From positions 5,806 through 69,805 of the forward strand of contig JAZLCH010000007.1 in assembly GCA_045614145.1 (NCBI GenBank): a DNA stretch of 64,000 nt, written 5' to 3'. This document shows positions 5,425 through 55,816 of the stretch, piece by piece. The translations under genes and the position numbers were made by a program. Position 1 is the stretch's first letter. Each line of letters starts with the position of its first letter. The notes beneath the pieces were generated by a model. The model was not told the origin of the DNA. It was given only the letters and a program-made list of their open reading frames with translations, and made no database searches. The DNA is from Candidatus Enterousia sp. GTDB taxonomy: Bacteria; Pseudomonadota; Alphaproteobacteria; Rs-D84.

Positions 5425-5432
5425 AAAATAAA

Positions 5433-5459: not shown

Positions 5460-5568
5460 GAATGAAAGCGCGGATGAGAAACCGTGAATGGGTTCGCGCT
5501 ATTTGATGGCGAAAAGGGGTACATAGAGTAAAAACGAACAATGGAATATATGGTCTATTGTTGCGTCT

Positions 5569-5604: not shown

Positions 5605-5751
5605 TTGCGTGCGTTTATTATTATAAGAAAAAAATCCCAGAAATAATGCGTATGCGTCAGGTATTCATACCTATATAAATTTCTGATTTGTATTGATAGA
5701 ATTACGGTGTAGACATGAAACATAAAACATAAAATACAAAAAGGAGAGAAA

Positions 5752-6366
5752 ATGAAAAAGTTAGCTTTATCAACACTGGCAGTGCTGATGGCCTGCCCGG
5801 CATTTGCGGGTATTAATCATCCAGACCAGGGCAGCAGCTGGCAAATGTGGGGTATGGACCCATATATTGGATTGAGAGGAGGTATGAGCTATTCAAACCT
5901 GAATTATAAATATAATGGCAATAAGGAAGCCATGACAGATTATATCTTTCAGGGGCGTGCCGCATTAGGTTTGGAAGTGTGTGATACGGTTCGTTCTGAA
6001 ATCGAATGGTCTTATTTTGGCAAATTGTCTGATTCTGAACGCTTTGGCAGCGCAGGCAGCGTTGATGTAGAAGCCAAGATGCAGACCTTGTTGTGGAACA
6101 ATTATATGGAATTTGGTTCGTATAAAATCGTACGTCCATTTGTTGGTGTTGGCGCAGGTATTGCAATGACAGATGTTAAGCGTCATGGCGATTTGATTCC
6201 ACATCACAGCAAGGATGAAACGCGTTTCTCGGCAATGGGAACATTGGGCGTAACATTCGATATGGAACGCTTTGCGGTTGATTTAGCTGCGCGTTATACT
6301 TATGTAGATATTAATTCTGGTCTGCATAACTTTGGTGGTGATGTTGGTATTAGATTTATGTTCTAA
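5752..6366 (+). CDS. Outer-membrane beta-barrel protein (OmpA-like/Omp25/OmpW-type small barrel)
   Basis: Signal peptide, alternating amphipathic strands, C-terminal ...GIRFMF ending in Phe, RBS AAAGGAGAG. Confidence 0.65.
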   Translation: MKKLALSTLAVLMACPAFAGINHPDQGSSWQMWGMDPYIGLRGGMSYSNLNYKYNGNKEAMTDYIFQGRAALGLEVCDTVRSEIEWSYFGKLSDSERFGSAGSVDVEAKMQTLLWNNYMEFGSYKIVRPFVGVGAGIAMTDVKRHGDLIPHHSKDETRFSAMGTLGVTFDMERFAVDLAARYTYVDINSGLHNFGGDVGIRFMF

Positions 6367-14343: not shown

Positions 14344-14882
14344 TTTTGTTTCTCTGATGGTTTTGTTGATTGTTTTTGCAGTTCTATAATTTCAAATTCT
14401 TTCTGTGCGATAAGTTTTTTTATGTTTTCAATAGAAGCATAATATTCAGCAATTTCTTTTTTGCGGATGTCAATTTTTGATTGGGTTGCAGAAGCGGTTT
14501 GTGCGTTTGGTGTGAATTCTACATTTTTTTCACGAATATAGTTGTGTAAAGCGTGTGCGTTCAGCCCAAGTGCCATAAATTCTTGATTGCTAAACTGGTT
14601 GAAGATGTCGATATGCTTTTCAATAAGTAACTCAATCATATATGTGATATCTGAAACTGCTTTTTTGCCTAAGTTTCTAAACCTAAGCAAGTCTTCTCTG
14701 CGGGTGTTCATCAAGTCTAACAGTGTGACAATTCGTGCTTTATCAAATGTGGCGGTTGCAGGGTTGTATGTATGCTGCGTGTTAGATAACGCGTTGATAG
14801 TGCGTGCGTTTAATCCCAAGTCTTGTATCTTTGTGTTTAAAAGTTCTTGTATAGTCATTGTATGTTCCTCTTTATTCACCAT
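14340..14882 (-). CDS. Stand-alone protein resembling the RNA polymerase alpha C-terminal domain (two helix-hairpin-helix repeats) with a coiled-coil tail; inserted into the gatCAB operon
   Basis: IQDLGLNARTINALSN...IVTLLDLMNTRREDLLRFRNLGKKAVSDITYMIELL closely parallels the RpoA alpha-CTD motif LELSVRSANCLK...LLKTPNLGKKSLTEIKDVL. The start overlaps the stop of the gatA stub (ATGGTGA), and the stop overlaps the gatA ATG. Confidence 0.6.
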   Translation of the reverse strand: MVNKEEHTMTIQELLNTKIQDLGLNARTINALSNTQHTYNPATATFDKARIVTLLDLMNTRREDLLRFRNLGKKAVSDITYMIELLIEKHIDIFNQFSNQEFMALGLNAHALHNYIREKNVEFTPNAQTASATQSKIDIRKKEIAEYYASIENIKKLIAQKEFEIIELQKQSTKPSEKQK

Positions 14883-14986
14883 CCATATTTTTCAATGCGA
14901 TCCAGATACGCGCGTGTTAATTCCACCGCAGAAAGTTCGCGGGTGTTTAGTTTTTTTAGTGCTTCGGTCAATGTTAGATTTATCAT
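14876..14986 (-). pseudogene. Duplicated 5' fragment of gatA (36-aa stub MINLTLTEALKKLNTRELSAVELTRAYLDRIEKYGW*)
   Basis: 95% identical at the DNA level to gatA codons 1-35 and their RBS. It terminates at a TGA created at the duplication boundary. Confidence 0.8.
14883..14986 (-). repeat. Direct repeat copy 2 of the gatA 5' segment
   Basis: See copy 1 at 14240-14343. Similarity extends about 12 bp further upstream through the RBS. Confidence 0.85.
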
Positions 14987-14998
14987 TTCTGTTTGCTC

Positions 14999-16216: not shown

Positions 16217-16230
16217 TGCCCGGTTTTTAT
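16207..16230. terminator. Bidirectional terminator
   Basis: CCGGGCATAATGCCCGG hairpin followed by T5. Confidence 0.65.
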
Positions 16231-16246
16231 GCGTATAACGCGTTTT

Positions 16247-25846: not shown

Positions 25847-25867
25847 TGTTTGAATTTTTTTTTTTTT
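25847..25867. repeat. Homopolymeric poly-T tract (T21)
   Basis: 21 consecutive T residues immediately upstream of a TATAAT at 25872-25877. Confidence 0.9.
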
Positions 25868-26020
25868 TTTTTTTTTTGCTGTATAATGTGTGTGCATTGG
25901 GAAAACTGTGTGGGGTGTAACGGCCCGTTCAGTCGTCAGTGATGACGTTAAATACCAGAACCGATGTTAGAAAAAATAATTTGCAATGGTATGGCCATGA
26001 TTTTATGTAAACGACGTAAA

Positions 26021-36371: not shown

Positions 36372-36398
36372 AAACCGGCAAATATGCCGGTTTTTATG
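36372..36398. terminator. Bidirectional terminator
   Basis: ACCGGCAAATATGCCGGT hairpin followed by T-runs. Confidence 0.7.
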
Positions 36399-36415
36399 TG
36401 TATAGCGCGTTTTTT

Positions 36416-42196: not shown

Positions 42197-43315
42197 ATGG
42201 AATTTTCAGTGTTTCGTCAGGTCTTGATACGTGCGCTGGGGCATATGCAGTCGATTGTGGAAAAGCGCGCGACATTGCCTATTTTGATGAATGTTAAAAT
42301 AGAAGCGGCAGATGATTTAATTTTATCGGCGACCAATGTGGATTTGGAATTGGTTGAACATGTGGCGGCAGATATCACACTGGGGGGCAAGATTACTGTG
42401 CCGGTTCAGATGTTGTATGATATTGTTCGTAAATTGCCAGATGATGCAGAAATTTCTTTTAAACAGTCTGGTGACCAGTTGGTTGTATCCAGTGGACGCG
42501 CAGTATTCCGTCTGCCAACATTGCCAGCAGAAAATTTCCCAGCAATGGCGGGCAGTAATTTGACAACTAAATTCCAGATGACAACAGGTGATTTGGCGCA
42601 TCTGATTAATCAGACGAAATTTGCAATTCCAACAGATGATGTGCGCTATCATTTGGGGGGGATTTATTTCCATATTGCAGACGAAGGCGATACGAAAAAA
42701 TTGACTGCGGTTGCAACTGATGCCCAGCGTATGGCGCTGTGTGCAATGCCGGCGCCGGTGGGCAGTGCAGAAATGCCATCGGTTATTTTGCCACGTCGTG
42801 TGATTGGGGAATTGTCAAAATTGTTGGAAGATGCCAATGTTGATGATGTTATGGTTGAATTGTCCGATACCAAGGCGCGCTTTACAGTTGGCACTGCAAC
42901 ATTGACCAGTAAATTGGTTGATGCGCAATATCCAAACTATCGCGTTGTAATCCCTAAGGGGAATGACAAGATTGCAATCTTGGACAGAAAACAGTTTATT
43001 AATGCGGTTGACTTGGTTTCGGTTGCCAGTGTTGATAAGACAAAATCTGTTCAATTGACATTCAGTATGAACAAGTTGGTTATTAATGCATCCAGTCCAG
43101 ATGCAGGAACCGCAACCCAGGAATTGGATATTGAATACAATGGCGACAGTTCCTTTACAGTTGTGTTTAATGTAAAGTTCTTGTTGGATGTTGCAGGTCA
43201 GGTCGAAGGTGAAAAGTTCCAGATGGAAATGCAGGACCCGTTGGCACCGACCAAGATTAATTCAGTTGATAAAGATACGGATGCGTTATATGTATTAATG
43301 CCAATGCGCATGTAA
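42197..43315 (+). CDS. dnaN: DNA polymerase III beta subunit (sliding clamp)
   Basis: Three-domain beta-clamp, 372 aa, N-terminus MEFSVFRQVLIRALGHMQSIVEKRATLPILMNVKIEA. Confidence 0.9.
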   Translation: MEFSVFRQVLIRALGHMQSIVEKRATLPILMNVKIEAADDLILSATNVDLELVEHVAADITLGGKITVPVQMLYDIVRKLPDDAEISFKQSGDQLVVSSGRAVFRLPTLPAENFPAMAGSNLTTKFQMTTGDLAHLINQTKFAIPTDDVRYHLGGIYFHIADEGDTKKLTAVATDAQRMALCAMPAPVGSAEMPSVILPRRVIGELSKLLEDANVDDVMVELSDTKARFTVGTATLTSKLVDAQYPNYRVVIPKGNDKIAILDRKQFINAVDLVSVASVDKTKSVQLTFSMNKLVINASSPDAGTATQELDIEYNGDSSFTVVFNVKFLLDVAGQVEGEKFQMEMQDPLAPTKINSVDKDTDALYVLMPMRM

Positions 43316-43321
43316 AAAGTG

Positions 43322-43421
43322 AATTATAATAATTCATCTAAAAACAAATCGAGAATCTCATGTAGCGTTTGTACACTACGATTCTCGATTTGTTTTTATC
43401 TAAATCATTCTAATTTATTTT
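43322..43421 (+). repeat. Conserved-loop hairpin repeat element, copy A (directly 3' of dnaN)
   Basis: Stem AAAAACAAATCGAGAATC...GATTCTCGATTTGTTTTT around the loop TCATGTAGCGTTTGTACACTACG. Shares about 100 bp with the copy at 55658-55756. Confidence 0.8.
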
Positions 43422-43519
43422 CAATAAAACTTAATGGTGTATTAAAAAATAATTTGGAACACTTATGCATTGTTGGTATACAGTGTGTTTCTGATTCATT
43501 TGTCTTTTAATTTTTTATA

Positions 43520-43552
43520 AAAAAAATCCCGTCGGTTGACGGGATTTTTTGT
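43520..43552. terminator. Bidirectional terminator (tsf 3' end)
   Basis: ATCCCGTCGGTTGACGGGAT hairpin with T-runs on both strands. Confidence 0.7.
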
Positions 43553-43565
43553 TTGGGTTTGTATA

Positions 43566-44435
43566 TTAACCCAGCATTTTTGCAACTTCATCAGCCAGGT
43601 TGTCTTCGCGTTTTTCAATACCTTCGCCCAGTACGAAATATGCAAATCCAGCCAATTTGCCGTTTGCGTCTGCGATAACTTCGCGTACAGTCTTGGAAGG
43701 GTCCATAACGAATGGCTGTTCTTCCAGAACTGATTCGCCATAGTATTTTTTTATACGGCCTTCGACCATCTTTTCAACGATGTTTTCTGGTTTGCCAGCA
43801 GTTGCACCCGATTCGATAAATACTTTCTTTTCGCGTTCAACAGCCACCGGATCAACGTCGGCAATTGTCATGAATTCTGGTTTGTTTGCAGCAATGTGCA
43901 TTGCAATTTTTGAACCGATTTCATCGATTTTTGCATCGTCGCCGTTAATTGCAACTGCAACACCAATCTGACCCATGCCTGGGACCAATGCATTGTGGAT
44001 GTATGTAAAGATTTTGTCGCCTTCTACTTTGGCAATGCGGCGCAAATTCATATTTTCGCCGATTGTTGAAATTGTTGCGGCAATGTCGTCTTTTACAGCG
44101 GCCATTGTTGCGTCAAAATCACCTTTTAATTCGGCGGCTTTGTTTGCAACGTCTGCAACCAATTTCTGGAATTTTTCATTCTTTGCAACAAAGTCTGTTT
44201 CTGCGTTCAATTCAACAACGCAACCCATGTTGTCGCATTTTACAACAGTTACCAAGCCTGATGCAGCAACACGACCGGCCTTGGATGCAGCTTTTACGAT
44301 ACCTTTCTGGCGCAACCAATCGGCAGCAGCCTGGATATCGCCATCGTTTTCCATCAAGGCTTTTTTACAATCCATCATACCTGCAGATGTTTTTTCACGC
44401 AGTTCTTGGATTAATTTTGCTGTAATTTCTGCCAT
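43566..44435 (-). CDS. tsf: Elongation factor Ts
   Basis: MAEITAKLIQELREKTSAGMMDCKKAL, 289 aa. Confidence 0.9.
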   Translation of the reverse strand: MAEITAKLIQELREKTSAGMMDCKKALMENDGDIQAAADWLRQKGIVKAASKAGRVAASGLVTVVKCDNMGCVVELNAETDFVAKNEKFQKLVADVANKAAELKGDFDATMAAVKDDIAATISTIGENMNLRRIAKVEGDKIFTYIHNALVPGMGQIGVAVAINGDDAKIDEIGSKIAMHIAANKPEFMTIADVDPVAVEREKKVFIESGATAGKPENIVEKMVEGRIKKYYGESVLEEQPFVMDPSKTVREVIADANGKLAGFAYFVLGEGIEKREDNLADEVAKMLG

Positions 44436-44518
44436 GTGTAATCTCCCATAATGTGTTTTAATAAAAGAATTCTTGTGGCACGGGGAAAATCCCCGTGCAT
44501 TTTATATTGCAGATAATA

Positions 44519-45370
44519 TTATTTGTCTGCTTTGTCAGCCTGTTTGCCGCGACGTTCGGCACGTGCTTCGGATGTCTTGGATTTAATCTTGGCTTCTTTT
44601 TCCTTGATTTCATCTTCGAATTCATCGGCTGCATCTGCCTTGATGTCTGCTTCGGCTTTCTTACCAGCGGCGCCGCCCAGACGTTTTTCAATACCAGATA
44701 AGATTGCGTCTACGAATAAATCGCAATATAACTGGGTCGCGCGTGCAGCGTCATCGTTGCCAGGGACCGGGTAGTCAACCATTTCTGGATTCGCGTTTGT
44801 GTCGCAAATCGCAATTGTTGGAATGTCCAGGTTTTTAGCTTCGCGGACAGCGTTCATTTCGCGTGGAACGTCAATAACGACCATTGCCTGTGGTGTGCCG
44901 TGCATTTCCATGATACCACCGAAAATGTCGCGCAATTTTTCAACTTCTTTGGTCATAACACCAACTTCTTTCTTGGTCAGACCCAATTTGTCGGCGTTTG
45001 CAATGTCTGCTTCCATTTTCTTTAGGCGACGGATAGACTGAGAAACCGTAGACCAGTTTGTCATCATACCACCCAACCAACGGTTGTTTACATAGTATTG
45101 TCCGCAACGTTCAGCCGCATCTTTTACGATGTCTTTGGCCTGATGTTTCGTTGCAACAAACAATATTTTGCCACCGGCGGCTGCAATCGCTTCTAATGCG
45201 ACCAAGGAACGGTGCAACAATGGTGCAGTTTTGTTCAAATTGATGATATGGATTTTGTCTTTTACGCCATAAACATATGGTGTCATCAACGGATTCCAGC
45301 GACGTGTGTGGTGACCAAAATGCACACCAGCTTCCATCAGCTGTTTCATTGTAAATGTTGGCAATGCCAT
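44519..45370 (-). CDS. rpsB: 30S ribosomal protein S2
   Basis: MKQLMEAGVHFGHHTRRWNP motif. A Lys/Glu-rich C-terminal tail. 283 aa. Confidence 0.9.
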   Translation of the reverse strand: MALPTFTMKQLMEAGVHFGHHTRRWNPLMTPYVYGVKDKIHIINLNKTAPLLHRSLVALEAIAAAGGKILFVATKHQAKDIVKDAAERCGQYYVNNRWLGGMMTNWSTVSQSIRRLKKMEADIANADKLGLTKKEVGVMTKEVEKLRDIFGGIMEMHGTPQAMVVIDVPREMNAVREAKNLDIPTIAICDTNANPEMVDYPVPGNDDAARATQLYCDLFVDAILSGIEKRLGGAAGKKAEADIKADAADEFEDEIKEKEAKIKSKTSEARAERRGKQADKADK

Positions 45371-45552
45371 GATTTATCCTTTGTTTTTTCTGTTGTTATC
45401 CTCGTCGTGTGTGGCAGACCAGGGCGTGCCCCAGACAGAAATTTTACATCACGACTGTGTTATTCGCACCGCAGTGCGTGCCGTGATAATAGTCTATTAT
45501 ATATGAAAAATCAAGTAAAATTATAAAAATAATCTGTGAAAATATATAAAAA

Positions 45553-45580
45553 ATCCCCCGCGTATGCGGGGGGATTTTTA
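45553..45580 (-). terminator. Terminator after typA
   Basis: ATCCCCCGCGTATGCGGGGGAT hairpin with a T-run on the minus strand. Confidence 0.65.
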
Positions 45581-47410
45581 TTCGTCTATGTGTTTCTTTA
45601 ATTTTTTACGGGTGTTGCTGTCCAGTTCTTTTTTGCGCAGACGAATTGTATCAGGTGTGATTTCAACCAATTCGTCGTCCAAGATATAGGACAAGGCTTC
45701 TTCCAGCGAAATGCGACGCGGTGGTGCCAAGAATAATTTTTCATCGGCAGTGACCGAACGCATGTTTGTTAATTCTTTACCCTTGATTGGGTTGACTTCC
45801 AAATCATTTTCTTTGCTGTGTTCGCCGATAATCATACCGGAATAAACCTCGGTCTGGGGGTCAATGAACAGTGTGCCGCGTGGTTGCAGATTAAACAGTG
45901 CATATGTTGCGGCTGTGCCTTTCTCCATTGATACCAATACACCGGGGCGGTATTGCTGAATCGCACCGCGGTATGTGTCGTATTTATCAAATACGCGGTT
46001 CATAATGCCAGTGCCGCGCGTGTCAGTGCGAAATTCAGACAGGTATCCAATCAATCCGCGTGATGGGGCAGAAAATACAATACGTGTTTTGCCTGCACCA
46101 GATGCCTTCATTTCGGTGATTGTTGCCTTGCGCTTGGTCATTTTTTCAATAACGACACCGCTGAATTCGTCGTCTACATCAATTACGACGTCTTCGATTG
46201 GTTCTAACTTTTCGCCGTTTTCGTTTGTTTGCATTACAACGCGTGGGCGCGATACGGACAATTCAAAGCCTTCGCGACGCATTGTTTCAATTAAAATGCC
46301 CAGCTGCAATTCGCCACGACCAGAAACTTCGAATGCTTCGTTGTTTTCACTTTGTTCAACTTTTAATGCAATGTTTGTTTCGGCTTCTTTAAATAATCTT
46401 TCGCCAATCATGCGGGATGTTAATTTCTTGCCGGATTTACCAGCCAAAGGTGATGTGTTTACAAAAAATGTCATCGTCAGGGTTGGCGGGTCAATCGGCA
46501 TTGCAGGAATCGGTTCGGTGACAGATGGGTCACATAAAGTGTCGGCCACGGTCGCCTTGGAAAAGCCGGCAACAACCACAATGTCGCCTGCGGATGCGGT
46601 ATCGCGGGAAATCTTTTCAATGCCACGATGTTCGATGATTTTTGTAATCTTGGCGTTTTCAATAAATTCGCCATTGCGATTTATTGCCTTGACCGATTGG
46701 CCAACGCGAACGGTGCCAGATTCAATTTTGCCGGTCAGAATACGGCCGACGTACGGGTCCGCTTCCAGTGTGGTGGCCAGCATTGTAAATGGTGCGTCCA
46801 GTTGACAACGGCTGCCGTTGCAATCAGGGGCCGGAACATGGTCAACAATTAATTGGAATAATGGGGTCAGGTCTTTGCGTTCGTCATTTAAATCGCGTAC
46901 CGCCCAACCATCACGGCCAACAGAATATAAATATGGGAAATCCAGTTGGGAATCGGTAGCACCCAGTTTGTCAAATAAATCAAATGTTTCGGTTAAGACT
47001 TCGTCAGGGCGTGCGTCGGCACGGTCAACCTTGTTAATACATACGATTGGGCGCAGCCCCAGCTTTAATGCCTTGGACAATACGAATTTAGTCTGGGGCA
47101 GGGGGCCTTCGGCACTGTCGACCAACAGGACAACACCATCAACCATGGATAAAATGCGTTCAACTTCGCCGCCAAAGTCTGCGTGCCCAGGCGTGTCAAC
47201 AATGTTAATTTTGTATTCGCCCCACTGAATCGAAGTTGGCTTGGCAGAAATAGTAATGCCGCGTTCGCGTTCGATATCACCACTGTCCATAACGCGTTCG
47301 TCAACGCGTTCGTTGTCGCGGAATGTTCCTGCTTGTTTTAGCATATTGTCAACCAATGTGGTTTTGCCATGGTCAACGTGCGCAATAATTGCAATGTTGC
47401 GAATTTTCAT
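45578..47410 (-). CDS. typA: Translational GTPase TypA/BipA
   Basis: AHVDHGKTT, DTPGHADF, NKVD GTPase motifs and the EF-G-like domain layout. 610 aa. Confidence 0.9.
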   Translation of the reverse strand: MKIRNIAIIAHVDHGKTTLVDNMLKQAGTFRDNERVDERVMDSGDIERERGITISAKPTSIQWGEYKINIVDTPGHADFGGEVERILSMVDGVVLLVDSAEGPLPQTKFVLSKALKLGLRPIVCINKVDRADARPDEVLTETFDLFDKLGATDSQLDFPYLYSVGRDGWAVRDLNDERKDLTPLFQLIVDHVPAPDCNGSRCQLDAPFTMLATTLEADPYVGRILTGKIESGTVRVGQSVKAINRNGEFIENAKITKIIEHRGIEKISRDTASAGDIVVVAGFSKATVADTLCDPSVTEPIPAMPIDPPTLTMTFFVNTSPLAGKSGKKLTSRMIGERLFKEAETNIALKVEQSENNEAFEVSGRGELQLGILIETMRREGFELSVSRPRVVMQTNENGEKLEPIEDVVIDVDDEFSGVVIEKMTKRKATITEMKASGAGKTRIVFSAPSRGLIGYLSEFRTDTRGTGIMNRVFDKYDTYRGAIQQYRPGVLVSMEKGTAATYALFNLQPRGTLFIDPQTEVYSGMIIGEHSKENDLEVNPIKGKELTNMRSVTADEKLFLAPPRRISLEEALSYILDDELVEITPDTIRLRKKELDSNTRKKLKKHIDE

Positions 47411-47563
47411 GATTGTATCCCTAAAATTTTGTTTTAATTAGGTACAGGGTATAACTAAAAATAAGAAATTTCAACTTTTTTTATGCAAAAGGTTGACATT
47501 TGTTTGTGTTTGTCTATATTTGTAGTGTGAGTTGTTAATAACCGTAAACAAAGGAGACATGAA

Positions 47564-48004
47564 GTGGTGGATTTTAATGCAACGTTGACCAAGTTTTTTG
47601 AGGAGATTATAAAGTATTTGGCAAAACGCGCCCAGAATGCAAAGACGCTGGAGATTAGGGATGATGTAATGGCTGCAATAACGGCTGTGCGCAGGGTTAT
47701 GGCAGATCCAAAGGGATTTGCGGATTATAATGTGCGTGTAAAAGCAGGATTGGAAGCCCATACTGTTGTTGATGGATTTATGGCAGGAACGCGTGATAAT
47801 TCAGTGTTTTTGCTGTATAACAGCGTTTTATGGGCAATTAATGATTTGTATAGCCCGTATGAATGGGAACGTGAACAGGCCCAGCAAAAGCTGTTGAACG
47901 CCAAAAAATCAATTGAATATAAAAATTCTACAAATTTATTGAAAAGTTTATACTATCCATTTTTGCCAGAAAAAATGTTTGCAGAAAAAGTAAAACAGAA
48001 ATAA
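47564..48004 (+). CDS. Hypothetical protein, 146 aa (GTG start); tandem paralogue of the next gene
   Basis: RBS AAAGGAGA 8 nt before the GTG. Own terminator. Weak similarity to the downstream ORF. Confidence 0.45.
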   Translation: MVDFNATLTKFFEEIIKYLAKRAQNAKTLEIRDDVMAAITAVRRVMADPKGFADYNVRVKAGLEAHTVVDGFMAGTRDNSVFLLYNSVLWAINDLYSPYEWEREQAQQKLLNAKKSIEYKNSTNLLKSLYYPFLPEKMFAEKVKQK

Positions 48005-48005
48005 A

Positions 48006-48030
48006 AAAACGCCCAATTGGGCGTTTCTTT
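48006..48030 (+). terminator. Terminator
   Basis: AACGCCCAATTGGGCGTT hairpin followed by TCTTT. Confidence 0.55.
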
Positions 48031-48065
48031 ATGTTATAATGTACATAGTTATAAAAGGAGTTTAT

Positions 48066-48518
48066 ATGAGTAATAATTTCTCAGATGCAGAGGTTTATCT
48101 GGCGATTAAGTCGGCATTTGGTGCATTAAAGGGGCTGGCAAAAAATTCTTTGAATAAGGCGGCATTGCCAAAAAGTCAGGCAATGGTAAAGAAATCAATG
48201 GAAAATATAGACTTTATCATTAAAAGACCGCGCGCCGCATTAGAGGCGTATCGTGATACAGGTGGAAAAAAATCTGTTTCTGATAAAATATTAGATGATG
48301 TCGAAGGAATATTGGGGGTGACGGCTGATCATGACCTGTATGTTCTATTCCATAATATTTCTGTGTATATTGATCATTGGTTTACAAATGGCAAAGATGA
48401 AAATAATGCAAAAAAGATTGTCGCAGAATCAAAGCGCTTGAATAATATGTTGGATTTGCAAAATTCAAATGCGATTGTGCGACCATTTAAAAAATTAGCC
48501 CAGATGTTCCAACGATAA
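48066..48518 (+). CDS. Hypothetical protein, 150 aa; tandem paralogue of the previous gene
   Basis: RBS AAAAGGAG. A TATAAT at 48035-48040. Own terminator. Confidence 0.45.
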   Translation: MSNNFSDAEVYLAIKSAFGALKGLAKNSLNKAALPKSQAMVKKSMENIDFIIKRPRAALEAYRDTGGKKSVSDKILDDVEGILGVTADHDLYVLFHNISVYIDHWFTNGKDENNAKKIVAESKRLNNMLDLQNSNAIVRPFKKLAQMFQR

Positions 48519-48547
48519 AAAACGCCCGTATGGGCGTTTTTCTTTTA
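48519..48547. terminator. Bidirectional terminator (also the serS 3' end)
   Basis: AACGCCCGTATGGGCGTT hairpin with T-runs on both strands. Confidence 0.65.
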
Positions 48548-49822
48548 ATGTTTGCCACCAATTTTTGTGCGTCCACCCATCAGTGGTTGCAGCTTCTTGG
48601 GGATGTTTACAGAACCGTCTGGGTTTTGGTGATTTTCAATTACTGGCACAATCGCGCGTGGCAGGGCGATTCCCGTGTTGTTCAGGGTTGCGCAGAACTG
48701 CATATTGCCATTTTTATCACGAAAGCGCGTGTTGGTGCGACGGGCCTGGAATTGGCCAATTGATGAACAAGACCCCAGTTCGCGGTATGCGCCTTCGCTG
48801 GGGAACCAGGCTTCGACATCGTTCATTTTTACTTTGTTAAAGCCCATGTCGCCGGTGCAGGCCGCAATAACGCGGTATGGTAATTCCAGATCTTCCATGA
48901 TTTCACACAGATTGTTTAACAGATGTTCATGCATTTCGTCTGACTGTTCAGGGGTGCAGTATATGTACTGTTCGACCTTGTTAAATTGGTGTATGCGCAC
49001 GATTCCGCGGGTGTCACGACCGGCGGCACCTGCTTCTTTGCGGAAACATGGTGAAAAACCCGCATATTTTATCGGCAGGTCTTTTTCGTTCAGGACTTCG
49101 TCACTGTGCAGGCAATTCAAGATGATTTCTGCGGTGCCTGCCAGGCAACGGTCTGTGTCTGTTAACATGAACACATCGTTTGACATAACAGATGGATCGG
49201 TGCCCATAAAGTGGCCTGCGTTAAATATTGTTTGTGGCTTGGTGATTGATGGACAGCTGACGAATGTAAAGCCTTTGCTTATTAATTTTTGTAAAACGTA
49301 TGTTTCAATCGCCAGTTCTAATTCGGCGGCTTCGCCAAACAGGGCATATGTGCGTGCGCCACAAATTGATGCGATTTTTTCAGGTTTCCACCATCCGTTC
49401 ATTTCCAATAAATCCCATTGGGGGCGTGGTGTGAAATCAAATTCACGCGGTGTGCCAACACGGCGAACTTCGACATTTTCGGTGTCGTCACGACCGATTG
49501 GTGCTGCGTCAGATGGAATTTGTGGTACGCGGTGTAGCAGGTCTGTTAATTGTTTTTCTTTTTCGTCCAGTTCCGCCATGTCGTTTGCGATTTCGTTTGC
49601 AATTGCCTTGGAGGCAGCAATCAATGGTGCCTTGTCTGTGGCGGTTGGAATTTCGCGTGTGATTTTGTTCTTTTCGGCGGTCTTGGACTGGGTGATTGTT
49701 TTTAATTCACGAACGCGCGCATCCAGTTCCAGAATCTGGTCGGTGTAATCTGTAAAGCCTTTTAATTCGCATGCACGTTTTACGGTATCTGGATTTTCAC
49801 GAATGAATTTTATATCAAGCAT
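48545..49822 (-). CDS. serS: Seryl-tRNA synthetase
   Basis: Class II aaRS motifs, N-terminal coiled-coil arm, 425 aa. Confidence 0.9.
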   Translation of the reverse strand: MLDIKFIRENPDTVKRACELKGFTDYTDQILELDARVRELKTITQSKTAEKNKITREIPTATDKAPLIAASKAIANEIANDMAELDEKEKQLTDLLHRVPQIPSDAAPIGRDDTENVEVRRVGTPREFDFTPRPQWDLLEMNGWWKPEKIASICGARTYALFGEAAELELAIETYVLQKLISKGFTFVSCPSITKPQTIFNAGHFMGTDPSVMSNDVFMLTDTDRCLAGTAEIILNCLHSDEVLNEKDLPIKYAGFSPCFRKEAGAAGRDTRGIVRIHQFNKVEQYIYCTPEQSDEMHEHLLNNLCEIMEDLELPYRVIAACTGDMGFNKVKMNDVEAWFPSEGAYRELGSCSSIGQFQARRTNTRFRDKNGNMQFCATLNNTGIALPRAIVPVIENHQNPDGSVNIPKKLQPLMGGRTKIGGKH

Positions 49823-50050
49823 AATGTCTTACCTTCTTTAATAATTAATATTTTTTTTGAAATTTTAAATTTAAAAATATCTGTGTGACAAATTATTCCC
49901 CCGACGGGGATGAAGTGTGACTGAAAAATGAAAATTTCATTGTCATATCGATTGGATTATAAATTAATCATATTTTAAATGCAACGATTTCATTTGCATA
50001 TTTTGTGTGTATTTTGTATCGTGTGGCCAAACAAGGAAAGGAAGGTTATC

Positions 50051-50950
50051 ATGTATGATGTAATTATTTTGGGTTCGGGTCCGGCAGGTTTGACCGCGGC
50101 ACTATATACGGCGCGTGCAAATAAAAAGACATTGGTCTTGGGCGGTGACAGATTGGGCGGTCAGACCGCGGGGATTGCTGTGTTGGAAAATTATCCGGGC
50201 TGGGCCGGCAGTGGTTTGGAATTGGCCCAGTTTATGCAAAAACAGTGTGAAACATTTGGTGCACAGGTGACATTTGTATCTGCCAGAAATGTTTCGGGTG
50301 ATGCAGAAAATGGATTTGTGGTTAGCTGTGATGATGGCTGTGAATTTACGGGGCGTACAGTCATTGTTGCAACTGGTGCGTCGCCACGAAAATTAGAAGT
50401 TGCCGGTGCACGTGAATTAATGGGGCGCGGTGTTTCGTATTGTGCAACGTGTGATGGGTTCTTTTATACTGGCAAGACAGTAATTGTTTTGGGTGGTGGA
50501 AACAGTGCGTTAAATGATGCATTGTACCTGGCCGATTTGGCAAAAACAGTTAAAATTGTTTATCGCAAAGATGCCTTTACCCGGGCCGAGGCCGTTTTGC
50601 GTGAACGCGTTGCGGCGCGCGATAATATAGAATGCCTGTTTAATACAGATTTGGCAAAAATTGCGGAAAAGCCAGATTCAGCAGATGGTGAATTAATTGT
50701 GACCACAACAGATGGTACAGAATTAGTTGTTGATGGTGTTTTTGTTGCAATTGGACACGAAGCCAATACAGACTTTTTAACCGAAGATATTGCACGTGAT
50801 GCGCTGGGGCGCTTGGTACCTGATGCGTTGCCGTCTGGGATGTTCGTTGCTGGTGATGTTCGCAGTGGGCTGAAGATGCAAATTGCCACTGCAGTGGGTA
50901 CAGGGTGTGAAGTGGGGATGGACGCTGTCGCATTTCTTAATAAAAATTAA
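50051..50950 (+). CDS. trxB: Thioredoxin reductase
   Basis: FAD-binding GSGPAG, redox-active CATCDG, NADPH-binding GGGNSA. The true start is the Met at 50051; the ORF-table start at 49979 is upstream. Confidence 0.85.
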   Translation: MYDVIILGSGPAGLTAALYTARANKKTLVLGGDRLGGQTAGIAVLENYPGWAGSGLELAQFMQKQCETFGAQVTFVSARNVSGDAENGFVVSCDDGCEFTGRTVIVATGASPRKLEVAGARELMGRGVSYCATCDGFFYTGKTVIVLGGGNSALNDALYLADLAKTVKIVYRKDAFTRAEAVLRERVAARDNIECLFNTDLAKIAEKPDSADGELIVTTTDGTELVVDGVFVAIGHEANTDFLTEDIARDALGRLVPDALPSGMFVAGDVRSGLKMQIATAVGTGCEVGMDAVAFLNKN

Positions 50951-50955
50951 ATCTA

Positions 50956-51142
50956 ATGGCATATCTATGAACGGTGCCGTCCCCTCATGTAGCGTGTGTA
51001 CACTACGGGGACGGCACTGTCCATATCTATACCATTATCTTTAATTTTGTTCCGCTGCGAGGTGTTGGGCGGGGCTCAGCATGTAGCGTTATGTACACTG
51101 CGCCAACGGATTTTAACATATCTAAACATTCTGATTTATTTA
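50956..51142 (+). repeat. Conserved-loop hairpin repeat element, copy C (two tandem units, directly 3' of trxB)
   Basis: Unit 1 stem ATGGCATATCTATGAACGGTGCCGTCCCC...GGGGACGGCACTGTCCATATCTATACCAT around CATGTAGCGTGTGTACACTACG. Unit 2 is GTTGGGCG...CATGTAGCGTTATGTACACTGCG...CGCCAAC plus the shared tail ATATCTAAACATTCTGATTTATTT. Confidence 0.75.
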
Positions 51143-51198
51143 AACGCCCTGCAAGGGGTTGGGGCCATATAATTTTTATTTTATTTTATTTGTTTTCG

Positions 51199-51207
51199 TG
51201 CTATAAT
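51199..51207 (+). promoter_or_regulatory. Extended -10 (TGcTATAAT) upstream of the secreted-protein operon
   Basis: gTGcTATAAT lies 28 nt upstream of the ATG at 51235. Confidence 0.4.
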
Positions 51208-51234
51208 GCTTTGTGTAAGTTTTGTGGGGGATAT

Positions 51235-52155
51235 ATGCGTATTTTTGTGATTGTGGTGTTGGTGTTATTGTCTGCCGGGGCATTTGCTGTGGGGGTGGAT
51301 GATGCGTTATTGATGGCGCAGAGAAATTGTGTTGGGATTTCTGGTGAATTATCAGATTTGAAAAAAATGGCAGGTATTGGTGCCGCTGTTAGTGGTGTTG
51401 GTGTGGCGACTGGCGGGGTTGCGCTGGGGGTTGGGATTGCCAAGACGAATGTTGATGAACTGTTGGAACAATTAAAACAGGAAGTTATAGAATTGTCTAA
51501 ATCTGCCCAGGATATACCGGTGTATCCCATTGATGTGGATTGGGCAGGTTTTGATGATGCGATTGCTGTATCGGATGTGGGTGGCCAGGTAGCCGTACAA
51601 AATAATTCAGAAGTGGAAAAATTAGAAAAAAAATCAAAAACATTGGGAAATGTTCGTACAGGAATGTTAGGGGCATCAACGGTGACAAATATTGTTGGGG
51701 CCGTTGTTGCAAATGAAAGTAAAGTTAAGGGTGATTTGCAGGAACAGATAAATTCATGTTTATCATCGGTAAAGGTGTTAGAACGTGAATATAACCAAGC
51801 CAGGATTTCGCGTTCTATATCAGAAGAACAATTGGCGTATGTTAAACGTGTCATAACAGAATGTGGTGAATGGCAAATGGTTGATGTGTCGGTTGTAAAT
51901 TCTGGGGCGCGTGGTGCGGTTGTCTCGTCAGGTGTTGCAGCGGGGGCAGGTGCAGTTGGTACTGTCACTAGTGCAATGGCAAATTCTGATTCAGATGGGG
52001 ATTATAAAAAAGAAAAGAATTTGAATGCGGTATCAAATGTTATGGCGGGTGGTGCGACTGTGGCCAGTGTTGCTGCAACAGTATTTAATGTAAAACAGAT
52101 GGATTCTGTTAAGAAGATTGTATCTGTTGCAGATAATTGTGAGGGGGCTTTTTAA
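51235..52155 (+). CDS. Secreted hypothetical protein, 306 aa, Gly/Ala/Val-rich
   Basis: Signal peptide MRIFVIVVLVLLSAGAFA at the internal Met. No recognisable domain. Confidence 0.5.
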   Translation: MRIFVIVVLVLLSAGAFAVGVDDALLMAQRNCVGISGELSDLKKMAGIGAAVSGVGVATGGVALGVGIAKTNVDELLEQLKQEVIELSKSAQDIPVYPIDVDWAGFDDAIAVSDVGGQVAVQNNSEVEKLEKKSKTLGNVRTGMLGASTVTNIVGAVVANESKVKGDLQEQINSCLSSVKVLEREYNQARISRSISEEQLAYVKRVITECGEWQMVDVSVVNSGARGAVVSSGVAAGAGAVGTVTSAMANSDSDGDYKKEKNLNAVSNVMAGGATVASVAATVFNVKQMDSVKKIVSVADNCEGAF

Positions 52156-52158
52156 AAA

Positions 52159-52938
52159 ATGAAAAGATTATTAGGAAGTTTTTGTTTTTTCTTGTTCTTG
52201 GCGGTTGGCGTTAGCAGGGGAGATGGATATATAGAAGCAGATAAATTAAAGTTTGATACGCGGTATCAGTGGAATTCTGCGGTGGTTGCTGCGGCATTTG
52301 CAGTGACCCCGATGGAGATTTCAGGTATGTTGGGAAGAAGTAATGTGACATTGATGCAGGTCAAGGATTATGAGCTTACATCAGATACAAGGCTGCTTTG
52401 GTCATGGACAAATGATGCAATTAATAATTTTGTAGATGGTATAGACGAAGATGATAAAATTTTAGCGCTGCAAAAGTATGAAGAGCTGTTGACTGTTTTT
52501 AAAAAAAGTGAATGGAAATTTTCCTTGTCTACGGCGTATAATGATTGTGTTAGAACTTTTCTGACTGTTGATTTGATGCCAGAAGATTCTGTTAAGAATT
52601 ATTGTGCAAAATTTGTGAAAAATATGGTTGTTGCTAATAATGAAATAGCCTCTGCAGGATATCAAACGGATGAACCGCTTGGGTTATGTAAAGAGATGGT
52701 GGCAAGTAATGGTCTGGGATATCCTGTGGTTTGTGGTGGGAAGTGTGCCGCGATAATTGGAGATGATGAATTGGGCCTGTATTATGGACAAGATGCAGTG
52801 TACACAAAAAAATTTAATGATATTTGTGATGGAAGTTTTGGTAGAGATAAGTTCTGGTATGTTTTTTGTAATGGGGCTGAATTTAGGAAATACAACTCAA
52901 AAGATGCTGCATTAGAAAATATTAATAGGGGTTGTTAG
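52159..52938 (+). CDS. Secreted Cys-rich hypothetical protein, 259 aa
   Basis: Signal peptide. About 12 Cys. 3-nt gap after the previous gene, so an operon. Confidence 0.5.
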   Translation: MKRLLGSFCFFLFLAVGVSRGDGYIEADKLKFDTRYQWNSAVVAAAFAVTPMEISGMLGRSNVTLMQVKDYELTSDTRLLWSWTNDAINNFVDGIDEDDKILALQKYEELLTVFKKSEWKFSLSTAYNDCVRTFLTVDLMPEDSVKNYCAKFVKNMVVANNEIASAGYQTDEPLGLCKEMVASNGLGYPVVCGGKCAAIIGDDELGLYYGQDAVYTKKFNDICDGSFGRDKFWYVFCNGAEFRKYNSKDAALENINRGC

Positions 52939-52941
52939 TAA

Positions 52942-52972
52942 AAAGCAGTGAACAATTCACTGCTTTTTTATT
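52942..52972. terminator. Bidirectional terminator
   Basis: GCAGTGAACAATTCACTGC hairpin with T-runs on both strands. Confidence 0.7.
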
Positions 52973-52976
52973 GTTA

Positions 52977-53921
52977 TTAAATTTTGTCTTCTGAACCCAT
53001 GATGTTGCGGATTTCATCAACGCAGATTTGTGTCATTGTTTGACGTGCAACAGATAAAAATTCGCGTGGGTTAAAGTTTTCGGGATTCTCAGATAATGAT
53101 TTGCGTGTTGCGGCGGTAAAGCCCAGGCGCAGGTCGCTGTCTACATTTATCTTACATATATTCATTTTTGTTGCATGGCGCAGTTGGATTTCATCAATGC
53201 CGCGTGCGCCAGATAATTTGCCACCAAATTCATTAATTGTTGTTATTAATTTTTGAGGGATGTTTGATGCGCCGTGCAATACCAACGGAAATCCAGGCAG
53301 GCGAACTGCGACGTCGGCCAATATGTCAAAGCGCAATTCTTGGTCGTCTTTTTTGCGTTTATAGGCGCCGTGGCTGGTGCCGATTGCAATTGCCAGGGAA
53401 TCAATGCCGGTTGCGTTTACAAATTTTTCAACATCTGCTGGATTGGTGTAACTGGAAAAATCGGATTGTGTGTTTTCGTCTTCAATTCCCGCCAGGACCC
53501 CCAGTTCTGCTTCGACCGATACATTATATTTATGGGCGTATTCTGCGACGCGCTGTGAAAGTTCTGTATTTTCGTCAAATGGTAATTTGCTGGCATCAAT
53601 CATGACGGATGAAAAGCCGATTTCAATCGCGTGTGCGCATGCGTCAAAGCTGGACCCGTGGTCCAAGTGCAGGGCGATTTTGTCGTCGGGCGAAATGTTT
53701 GCGCCACGAATCAGGCCGGTCAGCATATCTGCCCCCATATATTTTAATGCAGATTCTGATACAGCCAGTATTATTGGGCTGTGTGTGATGCGGGCTGCGT
53801 CCAGAATGGATTGCAGTGTTTCCATGTTATAAAAATTAAATGCAGGCACGGCATAGTTGCGTGCAATTGCATCGCGAAACATTTCATTAGTATTAACCAG
53901 CCCCAGTTCGGTGTATGTCAT
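52977..53921 (-). CDS. fba: Class II fructose-bisphosphate aldolase
   Basis: FbaA/tagatose-bisphosphate aldolase family: DHGSSFD, the GTSHGAYK zinc-binding region, LVLHGASN. 314 aa. Confidence 0.8.
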   Translation of the reverse strand: MTYTELGLVNTNEMFRDAIARNYAVPAFNFYNMETLQSILDAARITHSPIILAVSESALKYMGADMLTGLIRGANISPDDKIALHLDHGSSFDACAHAIEIGFSSVMIDASKLPFDENTELSQRVAEYAHKYNVSVEAELGVLAGIEDENTQSDFSSYTNPADVEKFVNATGIDSLAIAIGTSHGAYKRKKDDQELRFDILADVAVRLPGFPLVLHGASNIPQKLITTINEFGGKLSGARGIDEIQLRHATKMNICKINVDSDLRLGFTAATRKSLSENPENFNPREFLSVARQTMTQICVDEIRNIMGSEDKI

Positions 53922-54057
53922 CAGATTTCCTTTTTTCTTTGATTGAATTATAGCATGTTTTTTTGTTTTTTAATACAAAATCTTGACAGGACGCATATTT
54001 GTGCAACAATTATTGCGAATCGGGGGTTGGGCAGAGATAGGTATAAAGGTGTAACAG

Positions 54058-54408
54058 ATGAAAAAAACTTTATTTGCTTTGTTTGGTCTGGCGATTCTGA
54101 CGGGGTGTGCGGGCTATTATGATTATTACAAGGGTGGTGTTCGATATACCCAGGATGGTGAAGATTGCGTTTTCTATGCAGCGGAACGTGGGCGCCATTA
54201 TTCGGATGATATTCGCAAACTGGATACAGATAAAAAGATTGTTTATCGCAATACAATGTGTCGTGATTTGTATGCGCGCGACAATATGGGGGTTGCGTCA
54301 ACAAATGCACGCCAGATCTTGGTGCCGGCTGCAACGGTCGCAGATGCGCCAAAATGTAATGCCTGCAATAAATGCGCAACAAAAAAGAAATATGTTTTTG
54401 TAAAATAA
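54058..54408 (+). CDS. Small lipoprotein, 116 aa, hypothetical
   Basis: Lipobox LTGC. Cys-containing. Own terminator. Confidence 0.5.
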   Translation: MKKTLFALFGLAILTGCAGYYDYYKGGVRYTQDGEDCVFYAAERGRHYSDDIRKLDTDKKIVYRNTMCRDLYARDNMGVASTNARQILVPAATVADAPKCNACNKCATKKKYVFVK

Positions 54409-54410
54409 TA

Positions 54411-54437
54411 TATCCCGCGTAATGCGGGATTTTTTAT
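54411..54437 (+). terminator. Terminator
   Basis: ATCCCGCGTAATGCGGGAT hairpin followed by T6. Confidence 0.7.
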
Positions 54438-54503
54438 GCGTAATATAATTGCAAATTGATTTTTATGTGGTATTATTTTGTCAACAAAATAAGAGGATTA
54501 TAT

Positions 54504-55087: not shown

Positions 55088-55657
55088 ATGGCATCTTATA
55101 TTGCAAATGATATGCGTGTGGGTTGGGTGATTTCACATAATGGTAAACGTTATTCAGTAACATCGATTACCAAGGTAAAACCAGGTAAGGGTGGCGCGTT
55201 TGTTCAGGCGGATTTGCGTGATATCGATTCTGGTAACAAAGGTGGTGATCGCTGGCGTGCAGAAGACAAAGTTGAAAAATTGATGGTGGAAGATTTTGAT
55301 TGTCAGTATCTGTATGCGGATGGCACAGATGCGTTCTTTATGAATCTGTCAGATTATGAACAGTTTACAATGCCTGTTGAAACAATGGGTGATGCAATGA
55401 AATTCTTGGCGCCGGAAATGGTTGTTAAAGCAAACTTTGTAGAAGGACAGCCTGTGTCAATTTCCCTGCCTAAGACAGTAATTGCGACGGTTGAAGAGAC
55501 AGAACCGGCACTGAAAGGTCAGACGGTTTCGGGCAGTGGTGGAAAACCGGCTATCTTGGATAACGGTGTTCGCGTTCAGGTTCCAGTATTTATTGAACAG
55601 GGTGAAAAGATTGTGGTTAATACGGAAACCTTGGAATACGTAGAACGTGCGAAATAA
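55088..55657 (+). CDS. efp: Elongation factor P
   Basis: KPGKGGAF motif (Lys34 loop). 189 aa. Confidence 0.9.
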   Translation: MASYIANDMRVGWVISHNGKRYSVTSITKVKPGKGGAFVQADLRDIDSGNKGGDRWRAEDKVEKLMVEDFDCQYLYADGTDAFFMNLSDYEQFTMPVETMGDAMKFLAPEMVVKANFVEGQPVSISLPKTVIATVEETEPALKGQTVSGSGGKPAILDNGVRVQVPVFIEQGEKIVVNTETLEYVERAK

Positions 55658-55756
55658 ATTATAATAATTCATCTAAAAACAATTCGGGCATCTTATGTAG
55701 CGTCTGTACACTGCGATGCCCGAATTGTTTTTATCTAAATCATTCTAATTTATTTT
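55658..55756 (+). repeat. Conserved-loop hairpin repeat element, copy B (directly 3' of efp)
   Basis: Stem AAAAACAATTCGGGCATC...GATGCCCGAATTGTTTTT, with compensatory changes relative to copy A, around TTATGTAGCGTCTGTACACTGCG. The arms match copy A. Confidence 0.8.
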
Positions 55757-55810
55757 GTTCCCAGTCCTGGGTGGGTGATTATATTATTTGAAATGGGGCG
55801 TTTTTTGTGA

Positions 55811-55816
55811 TATAAT
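55811..55816 (+). promoter_or_regulatory. -10 element (TGaTATAAT) upstream of the VirB2-like gene
   Basis: Extended -10 lies 27 nt before the ATG at 55844. Confidence 0.35.

Follow-up and report, generated by a model that had tools for sequence, protein, structure and literature searches.

A dispersed hairpin repeat family with a conserved apex and covarying stems behind stop codons in Candidatus Enterousia

The window analysed here, a stretch of 64,000 nucleotides of contig JAZLCH010000007.1 from Candidatus Enterousia sp., contains long hairpin repeats at the stop codons of dnaN, trxB and efp. These hairpin repeats are a real and undescribed family, best classed with the dispersed palindromic repeats, and a scan of one genome per species found it in at least 64 species-level genomes, at 119 or more loci. 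The reading which we tentatively prefer is that of a non-autonomous, lineage-specific, quasi-palindromic element that would occupy the terminator slots of leading-strand genes, be propagated as single-stranded DNA (ssDNA), be recognised at its apex by a putative factor and be transcribed with the upstream gene as a 3' hairpin. The main rival to this ssDNA reading is an RNA element of the 3' untranslated region (UTR).

Extent of the family

Loci were gathered by exact match to the apex, which gave about 0.95 Mb of sequence around the copies. Nearly all carriers are metagenome-assembled genomes named Candidatus Enterousia or uncultured gut Alphaproteobacteria. Enterousia belongs to the order Rs-D84 and has genomes of less than 1 Mb with a coding density of about 90% (PMC12306168). 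The density of the repeat comes to roughly one 105-nt palindrome per 16–20 kb.

It had been predicted from the letters of the window that the hairpins form a novel family, and the searches bear this out. Rfam 15 at gathering score returned two tRNAs only from the window and no family for the repeat, and in E-value mode nothing but miRNA-precursor hairpin models far under threshold. The apex pattern had 0 matches in viral contigs, the two units behind trxB (copies 2a and 2b) had no match by blastn against plasmids and phages, and a literature search on the repeat sequence and on Enterousia repeats found no relevant paper. No family copy was present in the 20-kb efp neighbourhoods of three more distant lineages (EF-P 84%, 75% and 70% identical), and an exact-protein look-up of the DnaN and TrxB of the window found no identical record.

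The window itself has three complete copies (43316-43421, 50943-51048 and 55651-55756) and one half copy (51049-51142). A covariance model trained on 114 family members found exactly the three full copies, at 111–119 bits on the + strand and 46–60 bits on the - strand, and its sole further match over the window was the isolated apex of the half unit. There are three occurrences of the core ATGTAGCGTNTGTACACTRCG, at 43360, 50987 and 55695, always on the + strand with 0 mismatches, and its expected count in the window is 0 (100 shuffles); a fourth apex, longer by one base, is present at 51081-51102. Each full copy folds as one long hairpin of -35 to -50 kcal/mol.

Structure and covariation of the unit

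The unit of about 105 nt consists of an outer helix of about 18 bp, an ATCT/ATCT box, an inner helix and the apex. Read 5' to 3', an A/T-rich 5' arm over the stop codon is followed by ATCT, an 18-nt variable arm, a nearly invariant apex, the complementary 18-nt arm, ATCT again and a T-rich 3' arm. The hairpin is thus longer than the 18–28 bp stems that had been described at first. The consensus of the 5' arm is AAATAAATTATAATAATTC or AATAAAATCTAATGGCAT, that of the 3' arm is AAATCATTCTAATTTATTT or ATACCATTATCTTTTATTT, and that of the apex is C-U-(C/U)-AUGUA-N4-5-UGUACAC-U-(A/G)-C-G. The outer arms had been taken as common to all copies, which applies to copies 1 (dnaN) and 3 (efp) only; copy 2a carries a second arm type, type B, with the arms AAATCTAATGGCAT / ATACCATTATCTTT. 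Arm types A and B also covary.

The predicted combination of a conserved apex with covarying stems is well supported across the family. In 114 full copies, 90.2% of the cells of the 41-pair structure are paired, compared with 70% after shuffling and 33–47% in slid controls. The covariation score is 0.50 against 0.15 for shuffled (0 of 500 shuffles reach it) and 0.07–0.11 for slid controls, and 32 of the 41 pairs show changes on both sides, i.e. compensatory ones. The outer arms take part in this covariation, e.g. at column pair 12/114, where 55 copies have AU and 48 have UA. The length of the inner stem is constant at 18 bp.

A number of positions are conserved as non-pairs, namely a U.C beside the stem and the tandem C.U/U.C which arises from the two ATCT boxes. 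The boxes are found in nearly all copies and are direct, not inverted. At the position adjacent to the apex, C.A (114) and U.G (27) prevail over U-A (16) and C-G (6), with an odds ratio of 32 (p = 3e-14). Within the apex, RNAalifold proposes an invariant 4-bp UGUA/UACA helix with a variable cap loop of 7–8 nt. Only 1 perfect palindrome exists among about 150 full units and the orientation of the apex relative to the arms is kept in 103 of 104 copies; therefore, asymmetric features are maintained. Together with the boxes and the preferred non-pairs beside the apex, this speaks for recognition of the fold and against mere copying.

The sole case of an inverted apex (CGTAGTGTACAGACGCTACATGAG) among about 104 copies has canonical arms and lies in L062 (Mgla_MAG_35) at about 5730-5810. 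Recombination between the two arms would produce such an inversion as its expected product. GTAG is confined to the apex and is replaced by GTAA in one subfamily. Most apexes read ATG-TAG (ATG-TAA in a subfamily), e.g. at 43360-43365 of the window, a start followed directly by a stop; this may be coincidence. The same could hold for the identity of the apex UUGUACAC with what we take to be the universally conserved 1390s segment of 16S rRNA.

Units occur singly and in tandem. Among 136 arrays, 76, 39, 16, 4 and 1 contain one to five units respectively, and in all 60 multi-unit arrays the units are direct. Tandem arrays are composed of 3' half units, and chimeric units with two mismatched arms exist. 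The 5' arms have an apex within 45 nt in 103 of 110 cases, the remainder being contig ends or decayed copies. It was also observed that an accessory module, ...GCAAGGGG(T)TGGG, stands behind 59 of 221 units, and 49 of the 77 occurrences of GCAAGGGG have a same-strand apex at most 120 nt to their 5' side. Further recurrent spacers are ACGCATCTGATGTGCTGTGTGCGGGTGTGGGC and ACGCTAATCACGAAC, and this mosaic layout recalls that of BIMEs.

Placement behind stop codons and replication polarity

The apex starts 30–49 nt past the stop of a same-strand open reading frame (ORF) in 114 of 223 units, and the rest follow at steps of about +95 nt as tandem copies. The stop codon lies at or inside the helix base, and it is TAA in 109 of 115 cases compared with 474 of 618 in the background (p = 1e-6). 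The position right behind stop codons in gene orientation, which the original prediction had noted, therefore stands, but the distance of 1–10 nt after the stop does not, because the dnaN stop is at the helix base and those of trxB and efp are within the helix. Copies are also found between rpsM and rpsK and after rpoA in the rpsM-rpsK-rpoA operon. Strict anchoring to the stop codon of a co-oriented gene, together with copies within operons, indicates that the transcript includes the element and that its place is the terminator slot.

A strict polarity was observed with respect to replication. A copy lies directly downstream of 100 of the 480 leading-strand genes and of none of the 238 lagging-strand genes (p = 9e-20), the leading strand being inferred from GC skew over 8-kb tiles and not from mapped origins. 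All tiles from one contig share a single element orientation, and in every case the G-rich strand is the sense strand of the element. The skew of the window is very strong and uniformly positive, 0.1–0.34 over most of its length. In L073 the skew remains positive over minus-strand genes, and it is therefore mainly replication-driven; an apparent reverse-oriented copy in L073 was a false positive of the regular expression.

The upstream genes (efp, dnaN, trxB, rpoA, rpsM, rpsK, ftsK, addB, dnaA, clpB, leuS and others) have no functional or expression theme. That copies stand behind highly expressed genes only, and that this causes the polarity, is ruled out by the presence of the low-expression genes ftsK, addB and dnaA in this list. 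No copy accompanies the rpsB-tsf operon of the window, which is highly expressed and lies on the lagging strand. A convergent gene comes next after 51 of 92 element-bearing genes, compared with 75 of 338 other leading-strand genes (p = 2e-9).

The roles listed in the original prediction were a terminator or 3' stabiliser, a protein-binding site, a mobile hairpin and a family of small RNAs (sRNAs). The first three cover both leading explanations, and the last is disfavoured because the stop-abutting 5' arm belongs to the covarying helix. For independent sRNA genes, the -10 box could be the perfect TATAAT in type-A 5' arms, and the U-rich 3' arm could provide termination. On the other hand, copies 1 and 2 have no sigma-70-like site in the promoter scan, the portion of the 5' arm that would precede such a start is part of the covarying outer helix, type-B arms have no TATAAT and copies overlap coding ends, which leaves this explanation hardly credible.

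Turnover between species and strains

Whether an orthologous site is filled or empty differs between species. At empty sites a canonical terminator lies directly behind the stop (dnaN in L066, L080, L097, L108 and L038; efp in L005), and in a population with EF-P 93% identical to that of the window the efp site is empty throughout. The flanks of empty sites resemble the outer arms. Filled orthologous sites differ in their stems and even in arm type. Identity between ortholog pairs is 0.41–0.54 at four-fold sites, about 0.30 in the downstream spacer, 0.36–0.63 in the stems and 0.59–0.74 in the outer arms, and the value of 0.93–0.95 for the apex is inflated, since the loci were gathered by exact apex match. 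Arm sequence thus drifts at roughly the synonymous rate while complementarity is kept. When sampling was based on EF-P and so independent of the apex, one lineage was found with a diverged terminal loop, ATGTATGTTCAATACAC, in which CUCAUGUA...UACACUACG is kept. Copies at different genes of the same genome are as alike as orthologous copies across genomes, the 5' stems differing at 8.6 of 18 positions in same-genome pairs, 8.5 in orthologous pairs and 10.5 in unrelated pairs.

Remodelling is very fast and is seen even between strains. Eight contigs with EF-P 100% identical to that of the window show five configurations downstream of efp: the arrangement of the window; a 3' arm that is the perfect reverse complement of the 5' arm, with AGAT replacing ATCT; a deletion which leaves CGGGCATC-apex-GATGCCCG followed by T7 and is terminator-like; an extra unit, the 3' arm of which again complements the 5' arm; and a type-B unit that replaces the type-A unit or is added to it. 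A second population with identical EF-P has arrays of one to five 3' halves with junctions inside the apex, and close relatives show compensated transversions. It follows from the strain variants that arm-to-arm templated copying and apex recombination both occur. Template switching at the DNA level can produce 'compensatory' changes without selection on RNA. The original prediction had taken compensation to point to a selected structure; the covariation is strong, but selection is not its sole reading, as a template switch which rewrites one arm as the complement of the other mimics it.

Synteny also differs around the dnaN copy. In relatives (L121, L122, L148, L152, L153) dnaN, ppa and efp are contiguous. 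In the window about 11 kb (43422-54455, with tsf, rpsB, serS, trxB and others) separates the dnaN copy from ppa. L121 and L122 have a second 3'-arm fragment, TATTCTATTTAATTTT, at the junction. The comparison of these sequences suggests a rearrangement breakpoint at the element beside dnaN.

Terminators and RNA elements as alternatives

One alternative would be ordinary intrinsic terminators that share ancestry or composition and have no dedicated factor or mobility. Copies do occupy the terminator slot, type-A stems have the layout of A-tract, GC stem and U-tract, one strain variant has collapsed to a canonical terminator and the flanks of empty sites resemble the outer arms. Compared with bidirectional intrinsic terminators, the position, the A-rich 5' and T-rich 3' flanks and the type-A stem layout are alike, whereas the 22-nt conserved apex, the ATCT boxes, the 42 bp helix, the tandem arrays, the intra-operon copies and the strand polarity are not. 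More than 100 loci of 64 species with saturated synonymous sites retain a 21-nt apex, and the direct ATCT boxes are retained too. A U-tract in the 3' stem is present in 49 of 123 arrays (about 40%, including copies 1 and 3 of the window) and lacking in about 60%, and it shows no correlation with operon-terminal position (31–46% across all contexts). Copies separate cistrons in the rpsM-rpsK-rpoA operon, a distinct canonical terminator stands downstream of copy 1, and lagging-strand genes, which need terminators too, have none of these elements behind them. By these points the explanation is largely refuted, and we regard it as very improbable.

A more serious alternative is an RNA element that acts in cis in the 3' UTR or between cistrons. 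Its apex and AUCU/AUCU internal loop would be read by a conserved RNA-binding protein or RNase, e.g. an RNase III-type enzyme that measures the 18-bp helix, and it would control the stability or processing of mRNA 3' ends or termination-coupled translation. Selection on the RNA fold would then underlie the covariation, and the DNA rearrangements would be side effects of a long palindrome. The invariable sense orientation, the stop codon at or in the helix base, the copies inside essential operons (rpsM-rpsK, after rpoA), which are necessarily transcribed, and the position of copy 1 upstream of the dnaN terminator all accord with this. So do stems which are about as alike as four-fold sites and are still about 90% paired and the conservation of apex and internal loops, a pattern typical of structured RNAs, as well as the exchange of C.A and U.G beside the apex and the constant length of the inner helix. 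Liang, Rudd and Deutscher (2015) reportedly found that E. coli REP hairpins at most 15 nt from the stop codon stall terminating ribosomes. An RNA element leaves unexplained, however, the total absence of copies after 238 lagging-strand genes, including the highly expressed rpsB-tsf, and its target genes would have no common functional theme. Half units that are unable to form the long hairpin retain an intact apex, and the compensated transversions in close relatives, together with a whole arm rewritten as a complement, show that copying takes place at the DNA level. We consider the RNA element possible, at a fairly low probability.

Comparison with known repeat systems

REP sequences and their BIME and REPIN clusters are abundant extragenic hairpin repeats located mostly at gene 3' ends, single or clustered with mosaic spacers, which form hairpins at the 3' ends of mRNAs and are thought to be processed as folded ssDNA (PMC8266576, PMC6006769, PMC3116915). 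The REP unit is marked by a GTAG or GTGG (GT[AG]G) tetranucleotide 0–2 nt 5' of the hairpin foot (PMC6006769). The Enterousia repeat has in common with REP the hairpins at gene 3' ends, their single or clustered occurrence and the mosaic spacers. It differs from classic REP, as had been proposed at the outset. The GT[AG]G foot tag is missing, the inner foot being ATCT and the outer foot A-rich. The clusters of REP (BIME, REPIN) are inverted pairs, whereas the tandem units here are all direct, and the unit is about three times longer. REP has a conserved palindrome with a short (2–5 nt) variable loop or a bulged long hairpin; the Enterousia repeat has variable stems and a conserved apex of about 22 nt. 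REP also has a cognate tnpA-REP/RAYT (Y1 HUH) gene with the repeats on its flanks (REPtron), and none was found near the Enterousia copies by tblastn with approximate queries over the neighbourhoods.

ERIC (IRU), the Correia repeat of Neisseria (NEMIS) and RPE are dispersed, lineage-specific, MITE-like imperfect palindromes of 100–150 nt that fold in transcripts. They have a consensus along the whole palindrome and occur in either orientation, and the RPE of Rickettsia is found in reduced genomes and is able to overlap the ends of coding regions. To our knowledge these families are restricted to other lineages. Compared by description only, the Enterousia repeat is like them in its similar size, long imperfect palindrome and dispersed, lineage-specific occurrence, and like RPE in its reduced host genomes and its overlap with coding ends. 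Unlike them, it has conservation of the apex, boxes and outer arms only, an absolute orientation, a 5' end on the stop codon and no detectable duplication of TA or other bases. It resembles MITEs in its terminal inverted repeats, the outer arms pairing over about 18 bp with fixed mismatches. With regard to a full-length insertion sequence sharing these ends, by which MITEs are recognised, no arm pair enclosing a longer segment was found in the roughly 0.95 Mb.

A likeness to IS200/IS605 lies in the strand-specific hairpin, the active strand on the lagging-strand template and the orientation bias (PMC5027513, PMC6006769). IS200/IS605 elements have distinct left and right subterminal hairpins and insert 3' of a fixed tetra- or pentanucleotide, whereas the Enterousia repeat is one large hairpin with no defined target, and no tnpA or tnpB was found near its copies.

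Integron attC sites are structure-defined hairpins of 57–141 nt directly after an ORF and in its orientation, with conserved unpaired positions, conserved ends (R boxes) and a variable apex, and they are recombined as a folded single strand. The repeats could by analogy be recombination sites, comparable to attC or to the folded attP of the CTX phage, for a site-specific recombinase (tyrosine, Xer- or integron-like) that acts on folded ssDNA with the ATCT/ATCT box or the TGTACA apex as crossover. Hairpins of 60–140 nt directly behind ORFs in gene orientation, conserved unpaired positions with variable stems, a polarity that tracks replication, junctions of partial and chimeric units that map to the apex and the synteny breakpoint that adjoins the dnaN copy would fit such sites. 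But the neighbours are core housekeeping genes and not cassettes, the arm ends by reading do not fit the R''/R' boxes (RYYYAAC ... GTTRRRY), and the apex is conserved here and variable in attC. No integrase was seen beside the copies, whose neighbours were not surveyed systematically. Such a role seems improbable.

A proposed terminator-slot hairpin propagated as ssDNA

No explanation can do without a conserved trans-acting factor by which apex and boxes are read. In our analysis, the strict replication polarity is predicted only by mechanisms in which the hairpin is used while it lies on the template of the lagging strand. Single-strand hairpin transposition by IS200/IS605 has a documented preference for this template (PMC6006769, PMC5027513), and such a use of the hairpin has also been proposed for REP/RAYT (PMC5027513, PMC6006769, PMC8266576). 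According to the reading that we tentatively prefer, the sense strand, taken as the lagging-strand template, would fold into a ssDNA hairpin during replication, and a putative conserved factor would read its apex and ATCT boxes. Copying, apex recombination and intrastrand template switching could then give rise to new copies and tandem 3' half units, with the arms staying complementary. The element, located between the stop codon and the next terminator or promoter, would be transcribed with the upstream gene, and the RNA hairpin would serve, or be tolerated, as a 3'-end structure. Copies with a U-rich 3' stem could act as intrinsic terminators, and copies without it as intercistronic or 3' protective hairpins.

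Several observations weigh against propagation as ssDNA. A search for IS200 and IS608 TnpA by tblastn in the window and the 119 loci (about 0.95 Mb, copy neighbourhoods only), with approximate queries, gave nothing below E = 0.5; this is a weak test. Comparison of filled with empty sites gave no alignable junction from which a target-site duplication could be read, and the A/T-rich AAATTT-type ends are themselves partly palindromic. A pure DNA transposon should be found at other leading-orientation intergenic spots too. Instead, every 5' end is anchored to the stop codon of a co-oriented gene, which points to a constraint linked to the transcript or terminator. Mismatches of G.T (182) exceed those of A.C (24), which fits a folded sense strand, but this excess could stem from a leading-strand C-to-T bias and hence does not discriminate. 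The skew-based assignment of strands and the inflated apex identity mentioned above belong here as well.

Two other origins were considered and rejected. That an inner hairpin was inserted into an older outer element, with ATCT as target duplication, is contradicted by the lack of empty arm-ATCT-arm sites, save one probable deletion product in L002. That the apex was inserted into existing terminator loops does not agree with the conservation of arm length, boxes and outer arms.

A more specific proposal, which we regard as speculative and rather doubtful, is that a dedicated, putative Enterousia protein recognises the apex together with the ATCT boxes. Protein and repeat would then make up a novel type of system, and the repeat would be either a tip-recognised hairpin which copies itself behind stop codons on the lagging-strand template only, or an RNA-protein mark of the 3' ends of co-directionally replicated genes. 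Recognition at the tip by such a protein would be the reverse of the foot recognition in REP/RAYT.

Copies and other repeats in the window

The genes upstream of the copies were confirmed as dnaN, a thioredoxin-reductase-type oxidoreductase/flavoprotein gene (trxB) and efp. All features of this section lie on the + strand where a strand is given. The dnaN ORF (42197-43315, +), which has Pfam DNA_pol3_beta domains, ends with TAA at 43313-43315 (+), and the helix of copy 1 begins at the next base. Copy 1 (43316-43421, +) is complete, has arms of type A, folds as a single hairpin of -35.1 kcal/mol and scores 110.9 bits. Its parts are the 5' outer arm (43316-43335), ATCT box (43336-43339), 18-nt stem (43340-43357), apex (43358-43379), 18-nt 3' stem (43380-43397), ATCT (43398-43401) and 3' outer arm (43402-43421). 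An ORF at 43319-43510 that overlaps copy 1 was dismissed as spurious, as the position of the stop codon relative to the element differs between loci. Adjoining copy 1 is a degenerate remnant, AATAAAACTTAATGGTGTAT, which resembles a type-B 5' arm (43423-43442, +). In relatives (L001, L110, L013) this position holds AATAAAATCTGATGGC and then a full unit, and judged by its sequence the remnant is probably the start of a lost second unit. A canonical bidirectional intrinsic terminator common to dnaN and the convergent tsf is located at 43521-43550 (+), about 100 nt 3' of copy 1, and copy 1 is therefore inside the dnaN transcript.

Copy 2a (50943-51048, +) is complete, of arm type B, with -49.7 kcal/mol and 114.8 bits, and the trxB stop codon (50948-50950, +) is within its 5' arm. 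ATCT (50963-50966) and the 5' stem (50967-50984) are followed by the apex (50985-51006), 3' stem (51007-51024), ATCT (51025-51028) and 3' arm (51029-51048). Two tandem units had been described behind trxB; only 2a is a complete one, and 2b (51049-51142, +) is a half unit of apex and 3' half whose 5' side is unpaired. It forms no long hairpin on folding and is matched at the apex only, with 17.6 bits. It comprises an unpaired G-rich spacer (51049-51080), the apex ATGTAGCGTTATGTACAC+TGCG (51081-51102), the 3' stem (51103-51119), ATCT (51120-51123) and the 3' arm (51124-51142), and this 3' half recurs within a full unit behind trxB in L103. The accessory GCAAGGGG module, frequent behind units, is present here as GCCCTGCAAGGGGTTGGGGC at 51146-51165 (+).

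Copy 3 (55651-55756, +), complete and of arm type A, has -43.2 kcal/mol and 118.9 bits. The efp stop codon (55655-55657, +) is within its 5' arm, and ATCT (55671-55674), 5' stem (55675-55692), apex (55693-55714), 3' stem (55715-55732), ATCT (55733-55736) and 3' arm (55737-55756) follow. A strong promoter-like site for the next gene, TTGAAA-17-TATAAT (11/12, with TG), lies at 55788-55816 (+). Between efp and this site no canonical terminator was found and copy 3 is the only hairpin; therefore, copy 3 fills the terminator slot.

Some other repeats were observed in the window. A second short motif, TATGYGTATARCGCGTTTT, occurs at 16228-16246 and 36395-36413 (with a related one at 11680-11704), directly behind terminator hairpins (CCGGGCATAATGCCCGGTTTTT...), and its sequence suggests a tandem mini-terminator module. 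At 25855-25877, 23 consecutive T follow a terminator and directly precede a TATAAT-like box (GCTGTATAAT); they may form a promoter spacer prone to slippage. A tRNA 3' end with its terminator (5415-5454) is repeated 148 nt downstream (5563-5602) with 85% identity and could be an integration scar or a partial tRNA duplication. A direct repeat of 112 nt with 95% identity is located at 14240-14351 and 14883-14994, 643 nt apart.

Significance

Genomes of less than 1 Mb with about 90% coding sequence normally shed repeats; this family is kept and turns over faster than the EF-P protein sequence. We know of no described bacterial repeat family that combines a conserved tip on freely varying paired stems, anchoring to stop codons and an absolute strand polarity. 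The family offers a natural system for the survival and spread of long palindromes in bacteria, for how selfish hairpins can take over terminator function, and for how arm-to-arm template switching mimics 'compensatory evolution', the last being a caution for RNA discovery based on covariation. The elements mark rearrangement breakpoints and strain variation, and they have potential for the strain typing of an abundant uncultured lineage of the livestock gut.

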